From Felis catus (Eukaryota): a stretch of DNA of 64,000 nt. Of this stretch, positions 8,439 to 43,639 are shown piece by piece; position 1 is the first letter of the stretch; each line of letters opens with the position of its first letter. The notes beneath the pieces are model-generated. The model made no database searches. It was given only the letters and a program-made list of their open reading frames with translations, and was not told where the DNA came from. A program made the translations under genes and the position numbers. Where the stretch lies: NCBI RefSeq assembly GCF_018350175.1, contig NC_058368.1:51709815-51773814 (forward strand). The letters run 5' to 3'.

Positions 8439-8641
8439 TTTTTTTTTTTTTTTTTAGTTTATTTATTTCTTTTGAGAGAGAGAGGATGGGGGGCAGAGAG
8501 AGAGGGAGAGAGAGAGAGAGAACCCCAAGCAGGCTCTGCACTGTCAGCCAGAGTTTGACATGGGGCTAGATCTCATGAACTGTGGGATCACAAACCGCCA
8601 AGACCAAGAGTTGGATGCTTAACTGACTGACTTAAGTGCCC
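8439..8641 (-). mobile_element. Can-SINE
   Basis: Poly-T, (GA)n, reverse head; TSD cttggcct(c/t)aattt. Confidence 0.9.
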
Positions 8642-8872
8642 CTTGGCCTTAATTTTTACATCTGTAAAATAAATACGTTGGAATCAACGAACTCTCTGGT
8701 TCTTAGGGAACACTTTATGTCATGTATTTGTTGTACCAGATCATGTGACTTTCTTAATGTCATTGAAAAATGTGTTTTATTAGCAATGAAAGAGTCACTT
8801 GTAGATTCTTAGAGTCATTGTCATGTATCTCCCTCTCTCTATTTTTCTTTTAGATCCTTCCTGGAAGGCAGC

Positions 8873-8915
8873 ATGTCAAATTTTACCTTGAGAAAAATGT
8901 CTCCCACAGGAAATG
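8873..8915 (+). CDS. SCEL: Sciellin first coding exon (exon ~8854-8915), MSNFTLRKMSPTGN(D); donor is non-canonical
   Basis: Polypyrimidine tract and TAG acceptor at 8851-8853; gcagcATG context; translation matches the recalled sciellin N-terminus (human MSNVTLRKMSPTGNE). The phase-1 end needed to join the next exon is followed by ATAATG, not GT. Confidence 0.85.
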
Positions 8916-9606
8916 ATAATGTAGATAATATTTTCCTTACTCAGAAAACTTAAGTATATGAGAAAAACAACTCATAGCTCCTAATTCTTTTATATAGATA
9001 TTGAATGTTTAGAAGCAACAATCTAACTTAATTAGCATTGCCAAGTTAGACTTCAGGAAAATGTAAGGGTGCTATAGCTTTTACTCATATAATTGCAATT
9101 CAAAGATTTTGTAAAAAATCAATACAAATGTTCTTTTGTGTGGGGGACATTCTGGGCTTCTGACTCCCCTGAGATTAAATAATTCAGTTACTTATAATCA
9201 AAAGCACCAGACCTGCTTGACTTTTAGTTAGTAGGTACTTTAAAAAATCTGTGTGTACTTCTGAAGCATATTTCTTTTTAAATAAAATGGCCAACCCATC
9301 AAACCCTGGCTTGGTTTATCTCAAGCCCATGGTTCTGTATTCCTGGGTGCCTCACGAGGCCTCCTGAATGCCACACTGTCAGTTTCAGTTGGCACCTAAG
9401 CAATTTTATATGTTATCTTTGATGATGAGATGTGGGATTTGTTCTTTCTTGCCAGCACATCCTACTTTGAAACAGTACCGGCCTTGTCAGTCTAGAAGAT
9501 TGATGCTGGCCAATCAGATGTGCCTCTCGAGACATCGAGGTTAACAAACTCACTCTCAGCCCCATGCAATTACACTGCCCAGTTTCTTATTTTTTTCTGT
9601 TGACAG

Positions 9607-9724
9607 ATATGAAGAGTACCACGCAGGGGACCACACTGAGGCAACAGGGTTTCCACGAGGTGAACAAAAGAAGGAATTTCTTGCAGGATAACAGCTGGAT
9701 CAAAAACCGTCCTGAAGAAGAAAA
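9607..9724 (+). CDS. SCEL: Sciellin exon 3, MKSTTQGTTLRQQGFHEVNKRRNFLQDNSWIKNRPEEE(K)
   Basis: tgacag acceptor, gtaaga donor, 118 nt, phase 1-2, open frame; strong match to recalled sciellin sequence. Confidence 0.96.
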
Positions 9725-10472
9725 GTAAGAGGGTGTGGAGAGGGTGGGTATGTGGACAATTAGGGAGAGCCATTCTCTAGTTGGGAAGCTAGCGGCCATC
9801 TGGAAAGCAAGCACGTTCCTTAAAACACTGTTACATGACCTAATATATCAGCTTTCAGATTTTCAAGACTATCTCTACCATTTTTATTATCCACATACCA
9901 AAGAGGATGTGAGTCATCAGGGAGAAAAAGCAGAGTTTCATTGTTAGAACTGAATAGACATTTGTGTTTATTTGATAAACAGAAAAGAACATGACTTTCC
10001 AGTTTCCCAAAAGATAATATTCAATCCATGGTAGGGAGATTCCAGATGCATGTTAATTATGTCATTTGAAACAAATAATAGTATGATTCCTAATTTGCAA
10101 ATTTAATAATAATTTACCTAAAATGTTGATATGTGCAAACGAAGTCAATGCATTCTCAATTCATTTTAGTCCCAATGGTCATATATATCTAGGTACTCAG
10201 TGGGTGGTAAATGTAATATTACTTTGTAAGGGAAAACATTGGCCACCAAGAAAGTTTTGTCTGTTTTGAGCATTGCTTCTACTAGCTATATGTTATAGAC
10301 CTAAAAACTACAACTGTAGGCATATCACCTCATTGCCAACATAGACATTTGTCCAGCCCAGATATATTTATTACAAATTATATGACACATATACATATAT
10401 TTTTTGTTTCCCTCTTATGTGTCATACTTGATACTAGGTACATACTTTACATATGAAGTACCACAAAATCTT

Positions 10473-10597
10473 GGGGCACCTGGGTGGCTCAGTCAGTTAA
10501 GCATCCAACTCTTGATCTTGGCTCAGGTCATGATCTCACAGCCCTGGGATTGAGCCCAGCATCCGGTTCCACACTGAGCATGGAGCCTGTTTGAGAT

Positions 10598-10635
<38 letters not shown>

Positions 10636-26554: not shown

Positions 26555-26754
26555 GTAAGGGAAAGGTATCAGATGTAATTGCTGGGTAACTTGATGGAAG
26601 AATGTGTTGGAATTTGACAATGTATAATTGCAGAATCTTTGCAATAAATCGGAGGCTGTCTTGTGAACTCTGAGTGCTGAATAAGACGGTGCCCAGTGGG
26701 AGTGAGGTCAGGGTACCGGTGCGTCTGGTAGGAAATCTGCAAGGAGCATGTAGC

Positions 26755-27214
26755 TGTATTCGTTTGCTAAGGGCTGCTGTAACAAAGTCCTACAGACTGG
26801 GTGGCTTAACAAAAATGTTTGTCACAGTTCCAGAGGTTAGAAGTCCAAGACCGAGATTTCGGCAAGGTTGGTTCCCACTGAGCACTGAGAGGGAGAATCT
26901 ATTCTACACTCTCTCCCAGTTTCTGGTGGTTTTCAGGCACTCTTTGGCATTTCTGAGTTGGTATAAGCATCATCCAGATCTCTCCCTCCATCTTTAGATG
27001 GTGTTCTCCCTGAGGGCATGTCTGTCCACATTTCCCCTTCTTAAGAGAATACCAGTCATATAACATATGTGGCCCTTTCTACTCCATTATGACCTCCTCC
27101 TAACCTAACTAATTACATCTGCATTGTCCCTATTTCCAAATAAAGTTGCATCTGAGGCACTGTGGGTTAGGGCTTCAACATATGAATTTTGGGGGCACAC
27201 AATTCAACCCATAC
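26755..27214 (-). mobile_element. MLT1-type MaLR solo LTR
   Basis: tgtattcgtttgctaagggctgctgtaacaaa start and gggcacacaattcaacccataca end. Confidence 0.85.
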
Positions 27215-30199
27215 AAGCAGCAGAGGAGAGAACGGAGTCCAGCACCAGGCTGGGCTCCGCTATGGGCTCCCGGTGCACCACTGCCTCCAGGCTGTGATGA
27301 ACCGGTATGACTGGGTGAGGATATGACTGGCAAGTTCTTCGTAAACTTTAAGGGATAAAAGGGTTGTTTATACTTCAATGTTTTGTCGCTAGCAATAATT
27401 ATAACTAAATTTATAGACCGTGTGGAGGGCACCTTGTTCTACAAAATCCATGCTAGGAATGTCAACAATCATTTAATTTATTGGGTGATTATGGTGTGCC
27501 AGATATTGTTCTAGGATCTGGGGGTATGTCAGTGCACAAAAATGGAGCCTACCATGACCTTCAAAGAAGCAGACACATGTGGACAACTCCTACAGTCTAT
27601 GCCATCTCTACCACACAAAGAAAAATAAGTCTCTGATTTGGTTTTGCTTTAGGGGATCCAAAATTGTTTTTTTTATGTCATCAGCCCCTAGAATATCTCC
27701 ACCAAACATTTCCGTGTTCCAATGGGTCTTACTTTTCCAATTCAACACTTGGAAACAAGAGTTTATTAAACAATGTGTTTGTTTAGTATTAGATTGCTTT
27801 ATTTCCCAAAATTTTCATCTGCTGTGCAGAAAGTATATTTGCATATATTTTATATTATTCATATATGCATAATTATTAAACATGTTGAACAATCACAACT
27901 TGGAATTACATCTACCTTATCTGTTAAAATATTTTCTTTTTAAGCCTCCTCATCTATAGGTGACTTCCAATTATATGAACTGCCAAGTATAGATTATGTT
28001 TCTAGTTTATAACCTTCTTTTCTTTTCCCTCAGGCAGTTAGCTTTCTTTTTATGAGTGATACCTTTCATGGAGCTACCGAAGTGGGGGAAATATTAACTA
28101 GGAGTTTTGGTAGTTACTATTGTTTCCTGAGTATTTTAAGACCCATCCAATTTTGTATTAATAGATAATAACTGGTACTTAGAAATATTTATTATCTCCA
28201 AAAACTTACATTCATCTTCTATGTATTATTCCAAATTAATGTAAATTATCATTACAATTAGAAACTGGTTATATAACTGTGTAAAAATACAGAAGGATTA
28301 TTCATGAGTTACTATCTCGTGCTTTCAATGCCCATTGAGCTTCTGGATCTCTGTTTGCATAGAACTGGTAGTGCTTGGCTATATGCCCTTACAATTTATG
28401 CATTGCTGGATGTAATTTACATGGAAGATAAAATGAGTCACAATGCTCCTATTTCTGGTTCCTGGATTAGGTCCATAGCACCAGAAATAAGGGAAAGAGA
28501 AGATTATTGGACTAGGTTGATCAATTTAGCTATCCATTCCTTTTTTTAGAGGCACAGATTATTACTATAATGGCTAAACTGAAAGATTTCTCTTTGAGGA
28601 TCAGAGCTAATGTCATGCCAAGCTTTCAGGGGAGGAGGGAATAATAACAATATAGCAATGCCTTTGATTTCTAAAATGCTTTTCTTTGGAAGAGCTCAGA
28701 GTAAGCTTCTGTTTCTCACCTTTAATGCCAGTGTATTCCTAGGGCTGAAAAAGAGCCTTTTTAGTGAAAGCTGAAAAATAGAAGCAATTATTAAATGATA
28801 AAAGAAGCAAAGGCTTAAAAAAGAAATCTTTGTCCCCAGAAGAACACAAAGAAAATGAAAATAGGTCAAAAATATAAAAATGGGGGACTATGGTTTTTAA
28901 TACTAGCTAATAGCTCAGTGCTAACCTTATTTCCCTCATCCCTCACTTATACACTTGTCTCCTCCTCTCTTTTCCCTTTCTCATGTCTTCTGTAACAGAG
29001 TTACCCCTTAATACTAACACTCTTACTCTCTTTTCTGTTCATTTTGTGAACCTTCATTTTTCCCATCACCAAATCTTTCCCAGGGATTTCATTTTCTCTC
29101 ACACACCCCTGTCTTTGCAGCACATTTGAAAAGACCGCCAGACTTCCCAGCCATTGTGGGAGTGAGTCCTTTTCTTCAACCTTTTCCCCCCTTGACCTCT
29201 CTGTGGCCTTTGACACCATGGATCATCCCCATTCCCCCAGTTGTTCCTTTCTTGACTTACAGAATATGGAAAAATCAAACTTATTTGTGTTTAGATTAAA
29301 AATTTGTGTTGGGATTGTATTTGGATTAAAATCTATTACAGGTTTGATGTAAGCTGCCTTAAGAAGGGTGTCAAGCTTTTTTGTCAGCAGAAGAACCCAT
29401 GATATCACACCTTTATCTATATTTATATGTATACATCTATCTATAGCTAAGACTATATAAGACTGTGTTTATGTCTATATCTATTTCTGTATCTACACCT
29501 ATAACTATAGCTGCATGTAATTCTGTATCACTTAGCATGAGACTGGTGAGTTCAATTAGAGATTAAATGAGAGAATTTAATTTTCTAAAATAACCATATA
29601 TTATACCAAACAGAGAGAAAAAAAGCAATTTTTTCAAACAGGTATCATTTTATGTATGATATACATTAGTTTTATGGTGAGAGGTTAAGATCTGGGGATC
29701 AAACAGAATTTTGGAGTTAAGAGTTAAATATCTTTGAAAGCCTCTTGCCTTTAAAAAAAATAAGATTAAAGAGAGAAGCTATAATTCATGATAACAAGAC
29801 ATAGCATGTAAATTTTGGAACTTAAGTCAAAACTTTTCTAGCTGGTTTCTAAAGCAGCTCCTTGGTCATTGGGATGAAAATATTCTCTGACCTCCTCTAC
29901 CTTCTTTTGTCAGAAGAGAGACAACCAGCATAGCATTTTGAATGACCAAGCTACATCAACAAGATTATTTCTTTTGAAATCTTCTTATCCAGTTCCCCCA
30001 GAACTTATAATTTCTTTTCATTTTAATTAAGACTGAATCAAGATTTTAGCTTTTATAATTGCTCTTCCCTGTTACTGTCATCTGTCTCTCCTCCTACCTC
30101 TGTGATCAAATCCCTGCTTCACTGGTTTCCTTCTCTTTCCATGTTCAAACCCCTTTCATCTTAAAATATAAACTTCTTAAAAATTAATAGCCTAATTAT

Positions 30200-31400
30200 A
30201 CAAATTCATTTGACAGGCACCTGATCTCTTCATCACAACCAAAATTTTCAGAAAAATTGATGATACTTGCCATCTTTATTTTCTGGTTCTCATCATCATT
30301 AGTTCACAGAAACAGCTCTCCTCAAGGTCACTAATGGCCTTCTGATAAATTCTTGCTGACATATCAGCCTCTGTGACTACTTGACCTTTCAAAAGGCATC
30401 ACTGGCTGTTTTTGCCTTTAGGATATTTCTCTTCTATCTTTTGAGAAACTTCTCCTCCCCCCCCCCCCCCGCCATCCCCCATCCCAAATATACTCCTGGC
30501 TTTCATTTCTTTAACCATTGTTTCTCAGTCTCCTTTACTATCTCATCCTTTACCAATCCTTAATTGTTGATGCTCCTAAAACCTCAAAGTACTTCCTTTC
30601 CTCCCATTCTGTATTTTCCCCCTCCACAGGTCACCCATGCCCAAAGCTTCAACGGCCAGGTGTGTGCTCTTAACTCCTTCATTTATATCCACTCCACATC
30701 TCTTCTCTGAGTTACTTTAGATAGCCAACTGCCTGCTCAACACCTTCATTTAAATTTTTCAAAAGCATTGCAAACCTAACATGTTTAAAAGGAAATTCAT
30801 AATTTTTCACACTAACCTGGTGCTCTATCTTAATTAATAACATTATCCTTCAGCCTGTTGACACTCTTGAAAACTTGAACTTATTTTTCACATTTTTCTT
30901 TGCTTAATCATCAATATCCAATCCATCTAGTAAATCTTATCAATTTAGCTCCAGAATGACTCTTGCATCCATATACCTCCTTCATTTCTTTCATCATATC
31001 TCCTTTGGACTCCAGTAGTGGCTACCTGGATATTCTCCCTTCATCCACCCTGATACCCACTGCCCTGATCTCTTCTCCACACAGCTGCCCAAATGATATT
31101 TATAAAAGGTAATTGAAACATGTCACCCTCCTAAAGAAAAATATGACTTATCATTGTTCTTAAAATAAAGACTCCCATCCTTAGCACTGACCGCCTGCTA
31201 TTCCCTGGCTTCCATCCCTCATAACTCCACTTTGCTCTCTGTTCTAGTCAGGTAATTGGTTTTAAATGCACCGTACCTTCTATAGACCCTTAGCGTATAA
31301 GGTCATGTCTGCTTAGAATCCTATCTTCTCCACCAGTTGGGGCCCTTATGTTCCTGTGGCCATATTTTCATTAGGTTCTCTTCAGAATATCACTTCTGAC
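30200..31400. mobile_element. Degenerate L2 LINE
   Basis: Pyrimidine-rich L2-like motifs such as ctctcctcaaggtcactaatggcctt and ccaactgcctgctcaaca; boundaries approximate. Confidence 0.6.
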
Positions 31401-33279
31401 TCATGTCTGTTCTGTTCTGTCTGCTTCACACTAACTCAGGTATAGGAGACGGCAGCTTCCCGCCTTGATTTGTCCCAATACCACTTGTATAAGATTTTAA
31501 TAAAAATGAACTGCTAACAGCCCATTGTAGAAGCCCAGACCAAACTAGGTCAAATGTGATTTTACAAATTCCTGTTCTTTAGTTCTTTGACCACACCTGT
31601 TATTGGTTATTTCTTCTTGGCTGACATTTCTCTACAGGCCTGATTCAGTTGCTCTTTTGCTCAGTAGCCTCTCATGCCTTCTTTCTTCCATCTCTCTTTT
31701 TCTCTCCCCCACCCCCACATTCTCCTCTCCCCTCTTACTTCCACTCCTCAGTTTTATATTCATTATTTGTGTGGGTGGTCTAGTTCTCTCTTTGCTGTGC
31801 CAGGCTCTCCTCAGAGAATCTCATCCCCACCACCAAACATGATGATATAGTTACTCTTTGAGAGGCACTTTATCCTACCTTTTATAACATAAAATTATTT
31901 TGTGTCACAATAATATAAACATTCAGTCATCCACACTTAAATCATCAAAACTGTCACTGGCCTATCTCCTGTATTTCTCTTATTCAATAGTCATCATAGT
32001 GAGTTTGAGGGATCTGGATGCTGATCAAGAAAAAAATATGACCACTGGGGGGCAGTTGCACACTCTGAGCCTTATTTGGATGGTGCTTTGACGGGTTTGC
32101 CTGGGGAGCCAGTCACTCTGGGCATAAAACTTTCCAAAACAACTGCACAGGAGCTGCCATCAGAAGGGAAGGAGGGCAAGGGAACTCTGAAAGAAAAGGA
32201 GATTCACAGAGGGGGCTTTCCTGTCCAGGTGATGCCCTCAGCAGCATGGCCGCAGGGGTTTGGGGTCCTTTATGGCTCTCAAAGTTGGATAATATGGATG
32301 CACAAATAATCACAACACAAGATCAGCTATAGTATCATAAGAAAAGCATCAACATTCTCTGGGAGCTCTGATGTGGTGGGGAAAGCTTCTAGAAGGGAGT
32401 TCAGGGAAAAGGTCCTGAAAGAGGTGTGGCATTTGGGGGAAAGAGAGGAATTACATAATACTAAGTGTTCAAGTCCAGGGTGATTTTAAGTGTAGTGATG
32501 CCACCGATCAGTACAGGAAGAAACAGGAGCAGAATGGGATACACAATTGGTCTTAAGAGGCTGTCATTGATTTGAGCAGGTACAGTCTGGGATACTGAAA
32601 GGATATATTTGTGGAGGTAATTACCGAACAGTGAGAAATGAGGGAGGTGCTCAGGTAAGAGGTTGGTGCCAGAGATCCAGGTTTGGGAATGATCCCAGAG
32701 ATTTTAAATATGGTATCTTCAAAGTGAGGTTACCTATGGAGAAAATACTAAATTTGAAGACAATGAAAGTGGAACCTTGATGTGTGTCTACACATAAGGG
32801 GTTGAGGGAGGAACCAGAAAATGAGACTGTAACTAGTGCAATTACATGGTAAAGATGAAGTGTAATACGAGGTTGGTTGTGGCGAGGCAGAGTGAATGGA
32901 TACATTCTACATCCAAAATCAGTCATCCTTCAAAGTCTGGTATGAATCTTATTTCCACCACATACCCTTCTCAGCCCACGAGGTTGTTTTGGTCGTCTGA
33001 ATTCAGAAAGCTTATTGTCTGCAATTCTCACTTGGCAATTAATTGTGCATTACCTTAGAACATTACTTATTTTCATGGTGTACTTAGCTAGATGGCATCG
33101 TCTTATAATTTTTTGAGTCATCCGTATGACTTCATCCTTAGTAACTTATCAATAAGTGCATACTGATAAATGTTTTGTAATGTTTCTCAGTAACTACAAA
33201 ATAGGGGCTTCCCTCAACCCGTTATCATATTTATCTTTTTGTTGTTAGGCTTTATTCTATATGCTTAAATTATGAGGAC

Positions 33280-33460
33280 TGTATATATGTGTGTGTGTTT
33301 ATATATATATAATATATAGCTTATATTATATTAATTATATATATATATATATAGTGTGTGTGTGTGTGTGTGTATATATATAAAAAATATACATATATAA
33401 TCTCCCCTCACTTCCCCTGTCTGTATCTGTGTCTCTGTGTCTGTGTCTGTCTCTCTGTCT
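33280..33460. repeat. Compound (TA)n/(TG)n/(TCTG-like) simple repeat
   Basis: Seen directly. Confidence 0.85.
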
Positions 33461-33859
33461 TTCCAAAACAATTGTTGATCTCTGACTAAATGCTAGGAGC
33501 TCACTTTGCTAAAAGCCAGGAATACAGAGATGTGTAAGACCTAGTCCCAATTTCAAGAAAGACAAAGTGTATAAGGGAGTCAGTTTGAGCCAGGAGTACT
33601 AAACATGAAGACTGGCCCTAGTTAAGAGTGAGTCCTTGAGGGTATGATAAACACAGAAGTTGCAATAGCCACAAAATATGTGGACCAAGGAGAGGGAGAC
33701 AGTAGAGAATGTGTTCGAGGTATAGTAGGATTAAAAGAGATGCTTAAGGTAAACCTTAAAGAGTAAGCAAGAGAAAGCTAGGTGCAGAGATGAGGTAGGG
33801 GTGGAACCATTCCAAGAAGAAAGGAGAGGAGGGGCAAATGTTCTAATACCAGAGAACAT

Positions 33860-33860
<1 letters not shown>

Positions 33861-33906
<46 letters not shown>
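33861..33906. repeat. (GT)n microsatellite
   Basis: Perfect dinucleotide run. Confidence 0.97.
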
Positions 33907-33909
<3 letters not shown>

Positions 33910-36164
33910 GAACTATGGGACTTCTATCCAAGAAGCATTCTCTGCATTCTTCTTTATCAGTTATGTTTAGTCATAGCAGGAAATCTAGTAATTACAAATT
34001 CAATGTCATTTCGAAAAATGTCTAGATAACCATTTATAGATATACATTTATAATTTGTGATAAGCTTAGGTACCTTTTCAGAATATCATGCTTCTTTTTT
34101 GTGTTAATGCTTTGCTATTGCATAATTTGAGCTCTGGCTGTGCTTGAGATTGTGATATATATCATAGAAAGTACAAATGTCATCGCTGTGGATAATTATT
34201 AGGTAAGAGCCAGTGAAGTCTGCCTTTCCCACTTTCTGCTTTTTGAATATGAATCAGAAAGCAATTTGTTAGCAATTGCTAGTGTATGCCTTCAGTTTTC
34301 AAGTTGTTAAACTTTTCCTCATTTTTGAGTCCTTCACAAGATTGATAAGATAACCTTTGCCAGCCTTGAGCCAGGGCATGGACAATAGACTCCATTCATG
34401 GGAGATATTCAGTCACATCATGATGAAATATGGACACAGCATTTCTAGGAAGTTGATGTTGAAGGTACTTCCAATTTCAGAACCAACTGTTCAATGTTTG
34501 TGTTCTGTTTATGATACGTTCAAGTGTTCCTATGTTTTTATGTGGCTTAGAGAGCCCGTGGTTAAATGGCATGTGGAGCTCATTTAAGAAACTTAGTGAA
34601 GCTGAATTAAGGTAGTTTCTGAACAGACAATAAGAATGTTTATGATGTTACCCATTATGGCGATTCAGGACCACTGATGAAGCCAATTCCACCACCACCA
34701 CCACTACCAAAACACCAATCTGGTTTTTTCTGGAATTGTTTCGGGACACAGAGAAGAAAATACATAGCTTCCGATAAAATTAAAATAGTGGAAACACACC
34801 TAAGAAATTTCCCTAGGAAATTACCACATAGTTAAATGCTTGCTATGTACTTTTATATTTTCTCATCTGTATTTGTTCAACCTCTTCTTCAGTGGTTTTT
34901 ATTGTCAGTGAGTTGATTGGTAGAGTTGAAGGAGGAAAGAAAATCCTGATTGAGATGTGAGTTGCCATGGCAACTACAGTTATATTTTTCTGTGTGTAAC
35001 TATAAATGGTAAAATGTAACCCTTCTAATTATACTGCTACATTTTTAACTCTATTGGTACCAGACCCTCTGCAAAGTTTGTTGTCATGGTAAATTAAATC
35101 TATATGTTTCATTTGTATCCCAACAAAAGTCTTTATTTTAATTAGAATCTGTTTTGCAAAAATTAAGATTCTAAAACTCTTAGTAAAATATCAAACTACA
35201 GTGATTTTAAAATCTAATCTGAATGCCTACAAATAGCCCTTCTGGGCATTCAAAATAATTAAAATGTTAACCTGAATCAAGGTTTATTATTTTTGAAGTG
35301 TGTCATTTGAATAGAATGAAAAGAAAGCAAATTAAAAATGTGCCAGTGGAGGGCTTAAGCTTTATTTAGCAGGAAGTTGCTTTTTCCTCAGTCCTATGAA
35401 GTCAACATAGACAGGCTCTGCTCTCCTAATGCTAGTTTTAAGTAACTCATGCATTCAAACAACAACCATCAAAGACATCCTGCTCCCCACCCCCCATCCA
35501 GATTCACCACCCCTGCTCCCTTGGAGCCCCTGTTGCCTCTATTGCTGCCCCAGGTTGCTCCTTGAACTATGATGAAGCGGCAAACCCTCAGACTCAGAAG
35601 CAGGAGCAAGGAAAAAGCAGTGATAATCAGGATACTGAGGGGCAAGGGCCCTGCCGAAACCATCACCCTCCAGGTTACAGCTCCCTCTGTCCCAGCCATA
35701 AAAACAGTTTGATTTTTTTAAACAAGTGATTTCACCCTGTAGTAGTATTGTCTGAAGGTCTATCAGATAGAGATTGTAAATCTCACCTCTAAAAGCATGA
35801 AAATTCTGAGAGATTAAAGGGGCTGTCTGTGGTGATTCAAATCTTAGTGTCAATTACATAAATCATGTTTTTTTTCCTGGTAAAACTGAGCAGAATTGGG
35901 ACAGGCTGAGAGATGGTGGCTTGAATTTCATGAATAGGGGATGGCTTTGGAGGAAGAAGACTGGGAGGGAGAGAGTCCTAGGTGTGGTATAGTGTAAGTG
36001 ACAGGAGCATACTGTGACATAGACTAGGCTTCCAAGAACGTAGGAGGAGGGTAGTGGGAAAAGTGGGTGAGGGGTGTGTGCAAGGGCCCACATTTTACTT
36101 AAGAGTGTCTGCACACTTGGGGGCACTGCTTTGTCCTCTGATCTTTCTTCTTCCTCTGTCAGAA

Positions 36165-37074
36165 ATAGACAGAATATTAGATATGTGGAATCACAGTATG
36201 TGTAGCCTTTTGAATATGGCTCTTTCACTTAGCACAATGGATGTGGGGTTCATCCATGCTGTTCCGTGTATCAGTAGCTTATTCCTTTTCATTGCTCAGT
36301 AGTATTCCATTATTTGGAGCTACACAGTTCATTTATCCATTCAACTGGTGAAGGAAATTCAGGTTGTTTTCATAGGCTCTAAGAGTTCACATATGGGTTT
36401 TTGTGTGTACCTATTTCTTGGTGTGTGGGATTGCTAGGTCATATGGTAAGCATTTAACTTTATAAGAAACTTCTGAGCAGTTTTTAAAGTGACTATTTTA
36501 TTTTGCACCCCACCAGCAACACACAAGAGTTCAAGTTGTTTCACTTTCTTAACATTACTTAGTACTGTCAGCTTTTAAAAGAATTATTTTAGCCATTCTG
36601 ATATGTGTGGAGTGTATCTCATCCTGGCTGTAATTTGCATTTCCCTAAAGACTAGTGATGTCAAGAATCTTCTCATTCGTTTATTTGTCGCCTGTACATC
36701 TTCTCTGGTTAAATATCTGTTCAAATCGTTGGCCTATGTTTTCAATGGGTGGTTTGTTTCCTTACTGTATATTTGCGAGTTTTAAAAACTTACGTACTGC
36801 TTACAAGTCCTAAGTCAGATATGTGATTTGCATGTATTTTTCTCCCAATGTGGCTTGGGAGAAAAATCCTTCTCTTAACAATGTATTTTTGCAGAGCAAA
36901 AGTTTTTATTTAATGAAGTCCGGTTTATCAAGTTATTGTTATTTTTTTAGTAAACTGTGCTGTTGGTGTCATATCTGAGAGCCCTCTGCCTAACCCACAG
37001 CCACAAAGATTTTTCTTCTAAGAGTTTTATACTTGTATGTTTTATATACAGGTCTGTGATTCATTTTGAGTAGA
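36165..37074 (-). mobile_element. Old L1M fragment (end of ORF2 and 3'UTR)
   Basis: L1 motifs tggctctttcacttagcacaatg, taatttgcatttccctaa, aaatatctgttcaaatc, ttggtgtcatatctgaga. Confidence 0.8.
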
Positions 37075-37324
37075 TTTTTTTTTTTTGAGAGACAGTGAGA
37101 GTGAGAGCGAGAGAATGAGAGAGTGAGAGAACGAGAGAGCATGCGCGCAAGAGAGCATGCACAAGCAGGGGAAGGACAGAAGGAGAGGGAGAGAGAGAAT
37201 CTTAAGCAAGCCCCATGCTCAGCGCAGATCCCGACATGGGGTTTGATCTCACCACTGTGAGATCATGATCTGAGCAAAAACCAAGAGTCAGATGTTTAAC
37301 TGACTGAACCACTCAGGGGGACCC
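37075..37324 (-). mobile_element. Can-SINE
   Basis: Reverse SINE with expanded GA region; TSD-like gagtaga. Confidence 0.88.
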
Positions 37325-39166
37325 TGGAGTAGACTCTTTTTCAATGCTAAAAAATTTTAGAACTTTACCTGATAGTAATTGGACTATTCTTATTATGTCT
37401 TTGAGAAAATATCTAGGGACCAAAAGTTGCTATGAATTTAACAGTACTTAAAATTTCTGTCTCTTTGTGTCTATTGGCTAGCTAAAGTTTACATATTTTC
37501 TTATAGAGCTAATTAAATTATGTTAATTTAAATTGTATTAACCACAACCACATCTACATACATTTGGAAAGTGCAGTATATCAATGTGCAAGGTGCTTAG
37601 TCTATAGCAAGTACTTGGGGCTCGGTGGAATTAAGGATGCCTTGTAATAACTCTGTCTTCCCACAGTCATGTAGTGGTTTGCCAGCCACAGATCTGGACA
37701 GATCTTCTCCTTTTGTAGATAAAGAAGCAGAGGTTCAGAGAATCAGCCCTCTTTCTAGGGTCCAACTGAGTTAGTGGCAAAGCTAGTCTAAAACGTAGGT
37801 CTCTGGAATTTTGAGGAAGGTGCATGCTCTATTGCTGTGTTATGGTTTCTTGAAATGGCCCCTGGCCACTAGGAAGTGAGACTTCATTATAGTAATCATT
37901 CTTTTGAACATGTTCCTTACATTCTATAAGCTCTTTGAGATCAGGGACCACATCTTTTTTAGCTTTTGAATGCCCAGTTTTGCTCATATGTTGCTATGTG
38001 TCCTAATATTAAAACTGGGGCATTTGTGGAATAAATGCTTGTTGAGCTAATGACTCCTTCCTTGGGCAAGAAAGTAATGCATGACAACATATTGTTATTA
38101 GATTTTCACTGGGAATACTGGTGTATTGGTATTGGTCTGATCCAGTATGATCTAGAGAATAACACATGAGATTCAACATCAGAAAAACTAAGCTGAAACC
38201 CTGGCTGGCTGAACTACTTACTAGCACCGTGACGTAGGGCAGATTACTTAACCTTTGGGACTCATCGAAAAACAAAACAAAACAAAACAAAAAACAAAAC
38301 ATACTCCATGAGATAGATGTATGAATGGAATAAAATAATGCTTGTGAGAGGTTGACCAAGTTAGTATGGTACTGAAACTCAAAAACTAGAAGTTCCATCT
38401 CCTTTGTCACTTTGTGGGAATAAAAATTCAGTGTGTGAAAAACAAAGCCTAAGCATGATGGAAGTTGAAAACAAAACTCACAGTTAAATGTTAGAGTCGA
38501 TTATTCTTGTTTCAATCTAGGCATGTGCTGTAGTAATGAAATGCTTTTCACGAGAGTGTGCAGACAGAAGTCCCAGAGCCAGGCATGTTTTGCAAAAAAG
38601 CCATGATGAAGAGAAGTGATTTTTGTAGCAGCACAAGAAAAAGAAGTAATATAAACTGCTTCATGATGTCATTTCTATCAGCTCTGGCCTTCGGGCTCAT
38701 CTGCAAGTTTTCCCATTTCTTATGAAAGCTGTCTTTTTTATTCCCAGAAGTTATTCCTTACAATTATAGTCACTCGTGTGGTGGCATGGATCCTGCAAAG
38801 GTCTTGTCGGCTTGAAGGAAAGACAGGGGGTAGAGCCAGGGGTCAACTTATCCAAGCTTAAATATTGCATCTCACGGTGGTATTCAAAGAGGATCGTTCC
38901 ACATGCATGTCTCTTGTTTCCTTCTCTTCAAAACATTCTGGGCCACAGCTTCCTGCCTCGCTCTTGCATTTTAATCCCCTGGCTTGGCATTACATCAAGC
39001 TCCTGGCAGGGCATGAATGACTTCTCTCATTGCCCCTAAGGGCTTGGGTTCTGTCATCTGTGGCTGTCATTGCGGAGATGCAAATGAAAGCTTCTATGAG
39101 GTGAATCGAAGTCAATGTGGCATTGCCTAGCCCCAGCCCAGCAGCGCTCTAAATGCAGCACCTTCC

Positions 39167-39381
39167 GGGGCGCCTGGGTGGCGCAGTTGGTTAAGCGTCC
39201 GACTTCATCCAGGTCACGATCTCGTGGTCCGTGAGTTCGAGCCCCGCGTCAGGCTCTGGGCTGATGGCTCAGAACCTGGAGCCTGTTTCCGATTCTGTGT
39301 CTCCCTCTCTCTCTGCCCTTCTCCTGTTCATGCTCTGTCTCTCTCTGTCCCAAAAATAAATAAACGTTGGAAAAAAAATTT
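39167..39381 (+). mobile_element. Young felid SINE (SINEC_Fc-like)
   Basis: Diagnostic head; perfect 17-nt TSD taaatgcagcaccttcc at 39150-39166 and 39382-39398. Confidence 0.96.
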
Positions 39382-40749
39382 TAAATGCAGCACCTTCCGA
39401 AATAAATATTCCCCTCTATTTTTCTTGGCCTTCACAACTGCACACCCACCTTTTCTTTCCAGGGTAGTCCCCAAACCATATCTGTACCGTGTACTACTTC
39501 CGTATCCATACCTGCTTCCCAGATATACCCAGTCAATATCACCTGCCTCTTTGAGGACTTAGCCATTCTAACATGGAGGAACTTTAGCTTTTCATCAGTG
39601 TGATTCTGGCATAGGCAAACTTTGGCACCATTCTATTTCTCCTTTTTGTAATCCTCCTTTTCATCTTTTTATCTCTCTCCTGCCTGTTCTCAGACATCCA
39701 GTGTCCTGTGCAGACTTACTATTTCCCAGGACTGACCACCTTCTCACCCCTTTCATCTACCCCTGGAAGAAAAGCATATAATCAGTGAATCCACCCAGGT
39801 ACACTAAAGATACGTTATCACTTGTGATATCCCATTATCCCCAACACAGGGATATTGTTTGAAAAGAGAAGGTTATGGCATTTCATATAAAATAATATCT
39901 AATTATAAAATCTAACACTAAACCAGGATGGGGAGACTATTTTTTTAGGTAAATTGTTTTTCAGGTTTTAAAACCTAAACAGGTTTTAAACGTTTCAAGC
40001 TGCCCTTCAGTTCTCATTTCCTTCCTCAACAAATAGAAATGCATCCAATCATTCCCTCTTTCAACACATCTGTATTGGGCACCTGAATCATACACAATCC
40101 TAGTATTTAGGATAGAACTATACTTCTAAGAACTTTCAGCCCAGTATGGAGACAGAAAATTATGTGTAATCCAGAACAGTGTGGTATGGGCCTAAAGAGG
40201 GTATGCTGTGGGGAGACATAGGGATGTATCCAGCACAGGTTTGGGTGCCACAAGGGACAGTAATGACTAAGCCAAGTCTGAAGCTACAGGAAGAAGTATC
40301 CAGGGGAAAGGGAGAAGCAGGTAGTCCAGAGAGCAGAGGGAATATGGTGATGGGTGGTTAGGAGTGCCAGGGTTAGGAGAGCAACACCTACAGTGTTGGG
40401 TTTATGTGGGGTAACGAAAGCCACAGCACTAGGTGTATAGTGAGCACTTACAGTGAGCCAGGCAGTGCTCGAATTCTTTGCAGGCCCTTCTCCTGGGTTC
40501 AATGCCACCATCAACACAAGGAGCAGGAGACTGACCGTACTCTGTGCACTGCCCATCACCCAGACGATCACTATCACATCACACTCTGCTGAGAAAGATT
40601 TAGGACTGATTGCATCACCTCCTCCATCTCTATGGCCACAGATCCCCATGAGAAGCTCGGTCTGATCATTTCTTGTCACCTTGAGTAGCCCCACAGAGCT
40701 CTGTCCATCACTGACCCTGACCCAAACTAGCAGCAGCCTAAGCACTCAA

Positions 40750-42700
40750 ACCTTTCACAGTACCTCTCTGGATGTGTCATCTATTACCATCAAAACTGGC
40801 TGCTCTGCAGTCTTGTCTTTGAATAGCACTCATCTGTTTGTTGAGCTCTTCCAGAAGACTCTGCTTCCATGGGGTCCAGAAGAAGAGGAGACGTCCTGTT
40901 TGCTCTTCATTGCTACTTCCTATCAATGTTAGCTTTCTCCTCCCTAAAGATCCCCTATCTTCCTTGAAATTATGGCATCATGAGCTTCTCTTCATCATTG
41001 CAGTCAATTGAAGGTCTCAGAGCCACTCACCACCCCTCTTTCAAGATTCTGGCACCAGGCTCATGGTCTCTGTCACACCTGCCTCCTGCCATAATGCTTG
41101 GTGATTTTCAAACCCATGTGGAGGATCCTTCCCCCAACTGGCCTCTCACTTTCTTGATCTCCTCTCCAATATTCTTGTCCTTTGCCCTACCTCAGCTATC
41201 CATACATCTTGCCTTTGTAAGTAACCAAGTGCATTTCAAAGTTTTTCCATTCTGCTTCTACTTTCTACTCCATTCAGCCCACTCTCTCCAGTCCTCTGAT
41301 TCTAGAAATTTCTCAGCCTCAGCCCCACCAATCACCAATCCACTGATTCTTCACATTGCCTCTACCCTCATATCCTCTGTTCCCTCCATGTCCATCTCAG
41401 ATCCCACAGTCCTTCCTTATAATCACTTCCTCATACCCCCCTTCCCTTCCTTTGCCCTCATTCTCTTTGTTGCACTCACTTGGCTGAATTATAAGCTTAG
41501 TTAAATCCACCTCTCTGTTTCACCTGTTTCTGCCCCCTAAGCAGCTGAATATGGCAAGAGAAAACAATGGCAGCTAGTTTTATTTTAATTCAATGGCCAC
41601 GAGCCTCCATTGAGCTACTGGTGCTGCCCAGGGATCCCTAGGATATCATGGGGGAGGGTTTATGGAGCCAAACTTCCTGGTTCAGATTCCTCCCTCTGCC
41701 ACTTACCAGCTGTATCATCAGGGATATTTATCTTCACTTTCTGAGCCTCAGTCTTCTCATGTATAAGGTAGAAAGAAGAATGATACTTATCTCTGGGATC
41801 ACAGTGAGGATTAAATGAGAGAGCTCTCTGTGTTTCCATCTGTGACCAACCAATCATCTCACTTGTGTCTCAGGTACCCTTACTTCTCAAGTCTCATTGT
41901 TTTCTGCTCACTCTGCTGCACCATCAAATTTCACTGATTCACTGGGTCATTCTCATCGCTATGTATGCAAACTCTAGTAACCTTCCTTGACCTATCAACC
42001 TTCAGGAAGCCACCCATTTCTCTGCAAAACACCTCTATCTCCTATTTTCTCTGAAATACACTCCTATAAAGTTGTTTTTCACTACTGCTCCATCAAAACT
42101 GCTCTCATCAGCGTTACCAGTGAGCACAATCTTGCCAAAACCATGGAAACTTCCCCATCCTTGTTTTATTTGATCTGTCCATTGCATTTGGTATGGCCAG
42201 TTCCTCCCTGCTTGAGACTTCCCTCACTTGATTTCTGGGGCACTACACCTTCCTATTTCTCTTTGGCCACTTCTCCTTGGACTCTTTTGCTGTTTCCTTC
42301 TCATACCCTTGACATCTAAATATTGCAGGGCTGAACCCTGAGCCCTCTCTGTTTCTTCATTTACACTGAGTCTCTTGGCGATCTCGTCCAGTTTCAAGTG
42401 TCAAATGGCATCTCTAAGTTGATGATGCCCATATTTATATTCTCTTCCTCCAATATCCTCGTGGCTCATTTTATCATTTCCTTTAGGTCTTGACTCAAAT
42501 TTCACTTCACAGAGACGCCTTCCCATTTTATATAAAATGGTGTTCTTGCACCATCAGTCTATATATCATATTCTCTTACTCTGTTTTATTTTCTTCATCT
42601 GTCATATATTTATTTGTGCATTGAAAGCCTTTTGAGAAAAGAGAAATTATCACTTTGTAGAATGCCTTGTACATAGAAAGCTACCAATACATGTTTGCTA
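40750..42700. mobile_element. Degenerate L2 LINE with a MIR insertion (~41660-41825)
   Basis: Long pyrimidine-rich L2-like tract (cttggtgattttcaaacccatgtggaggatcc; aaactgctctcatcagcgttaccagtga) with a MIR core inside; boundaries approximate. Confidence 0.6.
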
Positions 42701-43639
42701 AATAAAAGCATGATCTCATTCAGCCCTGACAACACCCCAGCAACCTTATGAGAAGGGTTATTATAGATGAAGAGATGGAATCAAGTTAGCCCATTATCAT
42801 ACAGCAGGCAGTTCAGACAGCTGGACTCCAGAGCCTACATGCTCACCTAGCATGCTACAGAAGCCAGAGGGGTACCTGGAGTCTGGGTCACAAGGGTACT
42901 TTTACTAGGTATGGAATTGATCTTGAGGATAATAGGGAGCTACTGGAGTGGTAGTGGTGGGGGTTGGGGGGTGACATGCCCTGGGTAAGGTGCTGACTCC
43001 ATCCAAAATATGTACATACTTGCCTGTCTGCAATTCCTGGGTCATCGAATCATGCTGGCTCAGAAGCCGCCTTGGCTCTGGGTTGGAAAGTTTAGGCTGA
43101 CAGCATATGTATGCTTTGCTAGCAGCAAACTGGCCTGTGCTGCCAATATTTAAACCAGATTTAGTTAAGAGCTTTGAGTCAACTTTATCTTGATGTCTGT
43201 AAAACTGAAAACCTTTCTTGCTGTTTCCATAGCAGCCTGATGGTTGACATAATTCCTAAAGAAGATTATATGTTAATGCCCAAGAACGATTTATTACACT
43301 CATGGGCTGTTGACCCAAAATGCCACAACTTGAGCTAGATAGTCTAGGAAATATTAAGCTTTTAAAAGGACATTATATTTCAAACTATAATAAAACAGGA
43401 TGAGGTTTCCAAAAATCTGATTAAATGAACTTTTAAAATGCCTGTAATTTAAATATTTGACTCCTCTAAAGTTTAGCGCGGTCTAGATTCTGGCCTTTCA
43501 TCTACCCCATGCCAGGGGGGTAAGGCAGTTGTAAGATGCACAAGCTATTTCCATATAGGCAATAAGTACATTTGGTTAATAGATGCTAAAATTTGCAATG
43601 TTTCCATGGTGAAATGAACTGCTGTTTTCTGTTTTAAAG

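Follow-up and report, generated by a model that had tools for sequence, protein, structure and literature searches.

Mutations that change the first base of an intron from G to A are a familiar cause of exon skipping in human genes. The domestic cat gene for sciellin, SCEL, shows this very substitution, G to A at +1, behind its start-codon exon, with the same expected outcome, namely loss of the exon or resort to weak cryptic donors. It differs from the human disease alleles in two respects: the change is apparently fixed and tolerated in the species or clade, and the skipped exon holds the start codon, so that the N-terminus is altered rather than the frame shifted. A second likeness is to exonised transposable elements and alternative first exons. 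An exon coding MTRCPEKHS, which opens the annotated cat protein, is likewise borne by a repeat and brings its own ATG and GT donor. In contrast to these described cases, its use is known here solely from annotated protein models, and it could be a first or an internal exon alike. AT-AC introns, which are of U12 type or, rarely, of U2 type, share their initial AT with SCEL intron 2, which differs from them by ending in AG and by having no match to ATATCC. Finally, the exons found in the stretch of Felis catus DNA that we analysed (64,000 nucleotides, hereafter the window) code for an N-terminal region and repeats identical to those of the annotated cat sciellin, but no normal junction can attach the conserved 15-residue N-terminus to them here. 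Sciellin has been described as a cornified-envelope precursor protein (PMC12081798). We found no published work on sciellin in felids or on the splicing of SCEL in Felis catus; the sciellin papers listed are general ones.

The identity of the gene is carried by the exons downstream of the altered site. The peptide of exon 3 matches 194 proteins at E ≤ 0.001; among the 120 listed, those with a name are nearly all sciellins, and the best of the matches listed are felid proteins. In a tblastn comparison, residues 1–15 of a Neofelis protein align to 8873–8917 with 100% identity, and later exons follow to about 60.2 kb. By these comparisons, the locus is confirmed as the SCEL orthologue. Exon 3 (9607–9724, plus strand) codes for MKSTTQGTTLRQQGFHEVNKRRNFLQDNSWIKNRPEEE and part of a Lys codon. 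As predicted, it contains an in-frame ATG of its own (9609–9611), and it is followed by the donor AAA/GTAAGA, with its 3′ end at 9724, not 9725. A strict spliced walk, in which exact translation was demanded, placed 16 further exons (exons 4–19, 12860–60214, plus strand), and the 16 introns are all GT-AG. Exons 3–19 reproduce residues 11–380 of sciellin isoform X11 of Felis catus with zero differences, which bears out the expectation that the downstream exons stay open; with a Leopardus geoffroyi protein, the same walk on the window breaks at residue 69, so that the window comes from the domestic-cat species or from something that cannot be told apart from it at this locus. The part of the protein coded in the window comprises its N-terminal region and the initial 20-residue repeats, and the LIM domain, visible by eye at the C-terminus of the annotated felid proteins, lies beyond the window. 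A unitary pseudogene was considered and rejected: within the window, exons 3–19 show no stops, frameshifts, or further broken splice sites, their introns are all GT-AG, and their translation agrees exactly with the annotated protein.

Exon 2 (8854–8915, 62 nt, plus strand), delimited by direct reading and tblastn, contains the canonical ATG at 8873–8875 and codes for MSNFTLRKMSPTGN and the first base of an Asp codon. Its acceptor (8828–8853, plus strand), a pyrimidine-rich tract with an AG at 8852–8853, reads as seemingly intact. The frame is open to G8915, and joining to the AT at 9607–9608 in phase 1 gives GAT ATG AAG. The expected 5′ splice site at 8916–8921 (plus strand; reading and donor scoring) is ATAATG, with AT in place of GT. 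Among the 17 SCEL exon ends within the window, that of exon 2 is the single one without a GT, and all 16 downstream introns are GT-AG. Scored with a textbook donor matrix, and with positions +1 and +2 ignored, the flanks of the exon 2 boundary reach 1.33 bits, compared with −2.0 to 8.5 bits (median 5.3) in the 16 real SCEL donors; the boundary would thus be a modest donor even with a G at +1. Translation of exon 2 past 8915 runs through 11 further codons, MSNFTLRKMSPTGNDNVDNIFLTQKT, and is closed by a TAA at 8951–8953 (plus strand).

The intron that follows (intron 2, 8916–9606, 691 nt, plus strand) ends U2-like, as an extended T-rich stretch leads up to the AG at 9605–9606. Held against the U2 type, it has the pyrimidine tract and the AG, and at +1/+2 it shows AT (8916–8917) rather than GT or GC. 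Held against the U12-type AT-AC introns, whose donor consensus is ATATCC, it differs in the donor, ATAATG, and in the terminus, AG rather than AC; a U12-type AT-AC intron was rejected on both counts. All sequence claims of the original prediction are borne out, as its coordinates and its letters at 8854–8953 and 9607–9611 match the window. Its central claim, that the canonical N-terminus is not producible from this sequence, holds for normal splicing, given the AT donor and the lack of a phase-1 rescue site.

The annotated cat protein begins differently. Isoform X11 opens with MTRCPEKHSD, a 10-residue start for which the window, searched in six frames, holds no MTRCPEKHS exon, even when as many as 3 substitutions were allowed. 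In the 40 kb searched upstream of the window, MTRCPEKHS and one additional G are coded at L005:1962–1989, some 47 kb 5′ of exon 2, and are followed directly by GTGAAG. This G and the AT of exon 3 make an Asp codon, in the same phase that exon 2 would have, and the upstream exon together with exons 3–19 accounts for residues 1–380 of cat X11, exon 2 being omitted. It had been predicted that skipping or reinitiation would yield a sciellin lacking its first 15 residues. The bypass of exon 2 stands as the likely outcome, with starts at MKSTT in three small-cat and two big-cat records, but simple truncation does not fit cat X11, which has MTRCPEKHSD instead. The upstream exon lies inside an old interspersed repeat: a genome-wide search with 181 bases around it gave 525 first-look candidates, and the 39 other copies that were scored show 75–89% identity and all span the part with the ATG. 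Isoform X2 of Panthera pardus also starts with MTRCPEKHSD, which argues that the upstream exon predates the split between big and small cats. In the region L005:1830–2010, a second ATG stands nine bases 3′ of that of the upstream exon and out of frame with it; once spliced to exon 3, the overlapping reading frame that it opens would run to some 34 codons and might lower the translation of the isoform.

Three types of N-terminus occur among the felid proteins: the canonical one, MSNFTLRKMSPTGND-MKSTT; MTRCPEKHSD-MKSTT; and a start at MKSTT. The tally draws on the 15 members listed of the 89 in the main felid cluster, with one isoform each for Lynx canadensis and Prionailurus; the tallied X-isoforms are computer-predicted gene models, and felids other than that of the window were seen as proteins, not DNA. 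Among the small-cat proteins listed (13 from 6 species), one is canonical, nine begin with MTRCPEKHSD, and three start at MKSTT. Among the big-cat proteins listed (16 from 5 species), the corresponding counts are 13, one, and two. In the models listed, the MTRCPEKHSD start is that of Felis catus (one model), of Leopardus geoffroyi (5 of 5), and of Herpailurus yagouaroundi (3 of 3), and the small-cat starts at MKSTT belong to Lynx canadensis, Lynx pardinus, and Prionailurus iriomotensis. The sole canonical small-cat record among those listed is a Lynx pardinus entry labelled “low quality protein: sciellin-like”; more canonical models from small cats may exist beyond the 15 of 89 cluster members listed. 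At least one canonical model is present in each of the five big-cat species. Isoform X2 of both Leopardus and Herpailurus has 696 residues and begins with MTRCPEKHSD, and Neofelis X1 and X2 (702 and 701 residues) begin canonically; judging from isoform numbering and length, the longest small-cat models seem to be without the canonical start. In total, 112 of the 137 retrieved proteins, from carnivores, whales, rabbit, and others, have the canonical type, which marks it as ancestral and the state in cats as derived.

These observations are probably best explained by a real and fixed loss of the donor, likely shared by the Felinae, as a result of which exon 2 would be bypassed and the N-terminus replaced or shortened. 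A G-to-A change at intron position +1 (8916) would abolish the donor of the start-codon exon, and small cats probably inherit it from their common ancestor. Introns with A at +1 and a terminal AG stall at the second step of splicing. An AT…AG intron should thus be unable to complete U2-type splicing, which would leave exon 2 out of the mature mRNA; weak cryptic donors could, at best, still bring it in as an upstream open reading frame. Two routes to a protein are then conceivable. Either the upstream repeat exon, with its own ATG and GT donor, would be joined to exon 3 to give MTRCPEKHSD-MKSTT and so forth, or a non-coding leader would be joined to exon 3 and translation would begin at ATG 9609. 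By both routes, the protein would forfeit its conserved first 15 residues, and the remainder, including the repeats coded in the window, would be unchanged. Fixation and sharing of the change, the skipping of exon 2 in vivo, and the choice of start are inferred from genome sequence and annotated proteins.

The upstream exon exists in big cats, too, which makes the bypass route older than the loss of the donor, and this pre-existing bypass probably made the loss tolerable. The split of annotated starts suggests a single loss in the ancestor of the ocelot, puma, and domestic-cat lineages. On the accepted felid tree, that ancestor also gave rise to the lynx and leopard-cat lineages. The canonical Lynx pardinus record, with its MSNFTLRKMSPTGND-MKSTT start, would then be a forced homology model; meanwhile, it counts against a shared loss. 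All told, we consider it likely that the loss is common to small cats.

How firmly exon 2 is excluded depends on the sites near its end. Between 8860 and 9010, four GT and one GC dinucleotides lie downstream of the ATG, and no phase-1 GT or GC follows 8915 up to 9010. The nearest GT (8921–8922, plus strand) is in phase 0, as originally predicted, and a second one (8954–8955, plus strand), also in phase 0, stands directly 3′ of the TAA. Joined to exon 3, the site at 8921 would give ATA TGA at once, also in agreement with the prediction, with the TGA overlapping ATG 9609; use of the site at 8954 would include the TAA at 8951–8953. Either GT would thus turn exon 2 into a short upstream open reading frame. 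Exon 2 could accordingly be retained through one of these two GTs, and sciellin be made from ATG 9609 by leaky scanning or re-initiation. The strong-looking acceptor of exon 2, the presence of two GTs within 40 nt, and the proteins annotated with an MKSTT start in three small cats are consistent with such retention, and it could coexist with skipping. Nevertheless, the flanks of the two sites score −1.41 and −3.09 bits with the same matrix, against the median of 5.3 in real donors, and both are outscored by all, or all but one, of the 16 real SCEL donors. Moreover, an early stop generally renders transcripts prone to decay. We consider retention by a cryptic donor unlikely, though not remote.

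Loss of the donor as a lineage-wide state is also to be weighed against an A that is real but limited to this species or polymorphic within it, as a hypomorphic allele would be. This would accommodate the one Lynx pardinus model with a canonical start, and the comparison of felids is one of annotated proteins. Against it, seven samples from four studies, none of them flagged as a possible source of the assembly, contain all words sampled around the site. Further, all five Leopardus geoffroyi and all three Herpailurus models share the start of Felis catus, and five of the five big-cat species have canonical models. The hypomorphic or null allele that had been offered as an alternative in the original prediction is probably not the case, as N-termini split between small and big cats in the manner of a lineage-wide state, and we regard a change restricted to Felis catus as improbable.

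The same samples bear on whether the A at 8916 exists at all. Fourteen sequencing runs of one organism contain a fraction of 1.00 of the 116 words sampled from 8700–9800. Three of them are flagged as possible sources of the assembly, and the other 11 come from the seven samples and four studies mentioned above. If the words were sampled at random, 116 of 1071 with 31 covering any given base, the chance that 8916 is left uncovered is about 3% by our own estimate. Apart from unindexed single-cell runs, the RNA runs that share words with 8700–9800 are metatranscriptomes; they contain 0.14–0.78 of the words, which are mostly intronic and by themselves say nothing about splicing. Since 11 runs not flagged as possible sources contain every sampled word, the A is probably no assembly error, contrary to another alternative raised beforehand. 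A consensus error, with a true G at 8916 and normal splicing of exon 2, is conceivable for a single base at the level of words. Yet all 14 runs, including those 11, agree with the assembly, the annotated Felis catus protein avoids exon 2, and eight models from two further small-cat genomes do likewise. Such an error is thus very improbable, and that the donor loss is a real event we hold with high confidence.

Still less credence is due to a cut between 8915 and 8916 despite the AT, with the canonical protein being made. Such a cut would call either for a non-canonical AT intron, of U12 type or otherwise, or for A-to-I editing at the first base. Exon 2 retains a reading frame without damage, the same as in big cats, and the Lynx pardinus model joins exons 2 and 3, both of which would fit such a cut. 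However, 43 coding bases are too few for decay to show, and the 12 other small-cat models all lack the junction. The donor departs from the U12 consensus ATATCC, the intron closes in U2 fashion with an extended T-rich stretch before its AG, and the second-step block of A+1/AG introns would apply. That small cats owe a canonical N-terminus to the editing of this A into inosine, decoded as G, or to unusual AT-AG splicing is scarcely credible and finds no support here.

Loss of a donor by a change at +1 is an event of an ordinary, well-known kind, and public gene models here already carry its consequence implicitly. If the loss is shared as proposed, the sciellin of the domestic cat, and probably that of most small cats, would be devoid of the 15-residue N-terminus conserved in other placentals, and its start codon would be supplied by an old transposable element or by the next Met. 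The locus would then be a natural example of an existing alternative 5′ exon that buffers the loss of a splice site, and the conserved N-terminus would be dispensable, at least in cats. For annotation, cat SCEL is better described from its alternative starts, and models with a canonical start projected by homology are suspect. Mice without SCEL are reportedly normal, the gene being reported as dispensable in them. With an event of a well-known kind in such a gene, the wider significance is modest.

Several minor observations concern the 5′ region of the gene. Six dog-like full-length sciellin reading frames (606–627 residues, on contigs of 2.1–2.9 kb) all start at the exon 3 Met (MKSTS…), which indicates that transcripts lacking the start exon, or contigs truncated on their 5′ side, occur commonly beyond cats as well. 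In sea lion, badger, and one transcript-derived model, the reading frame reaches back beyond the canonical ATG and takes in the 5′ portion of exon 2 (…SLLEG.MSNF…), and the window has this same frame open from 8855 (SFLEGSM). A search of the first 12 kb of the window and of 40 kb upstream for an exon coding the sea-lion and badger extension (MEALG…) returned scattered noise of 4–9 residues, and canonical SCEL exon 1 was not located in the same range. At some distance, exons 2 and 3 are flanked by two segments, 8476–8640 and 10457–10600, that translate to peptides of the GAPGWLSQLS… type, which we take to be typical of carnivore SINEs.

Further downstream, the largest SCEL intron in the window spans 17 kb (26555–43639), from the exon whose product ends RQSWFPPPPPG…SRR to the one whose product begins EPTVRPPIPPKP. 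Inside it, the GC skew flips from −0.404 at 30001–32000 to +0.243 at 32001–34000. A (GT)23 tract at 33861–33906 is the sole tandem repeat in this range, and no inverted repeats of at least 60 nt were found there; the flip possibly reflects two strand-biased repeat insertions.
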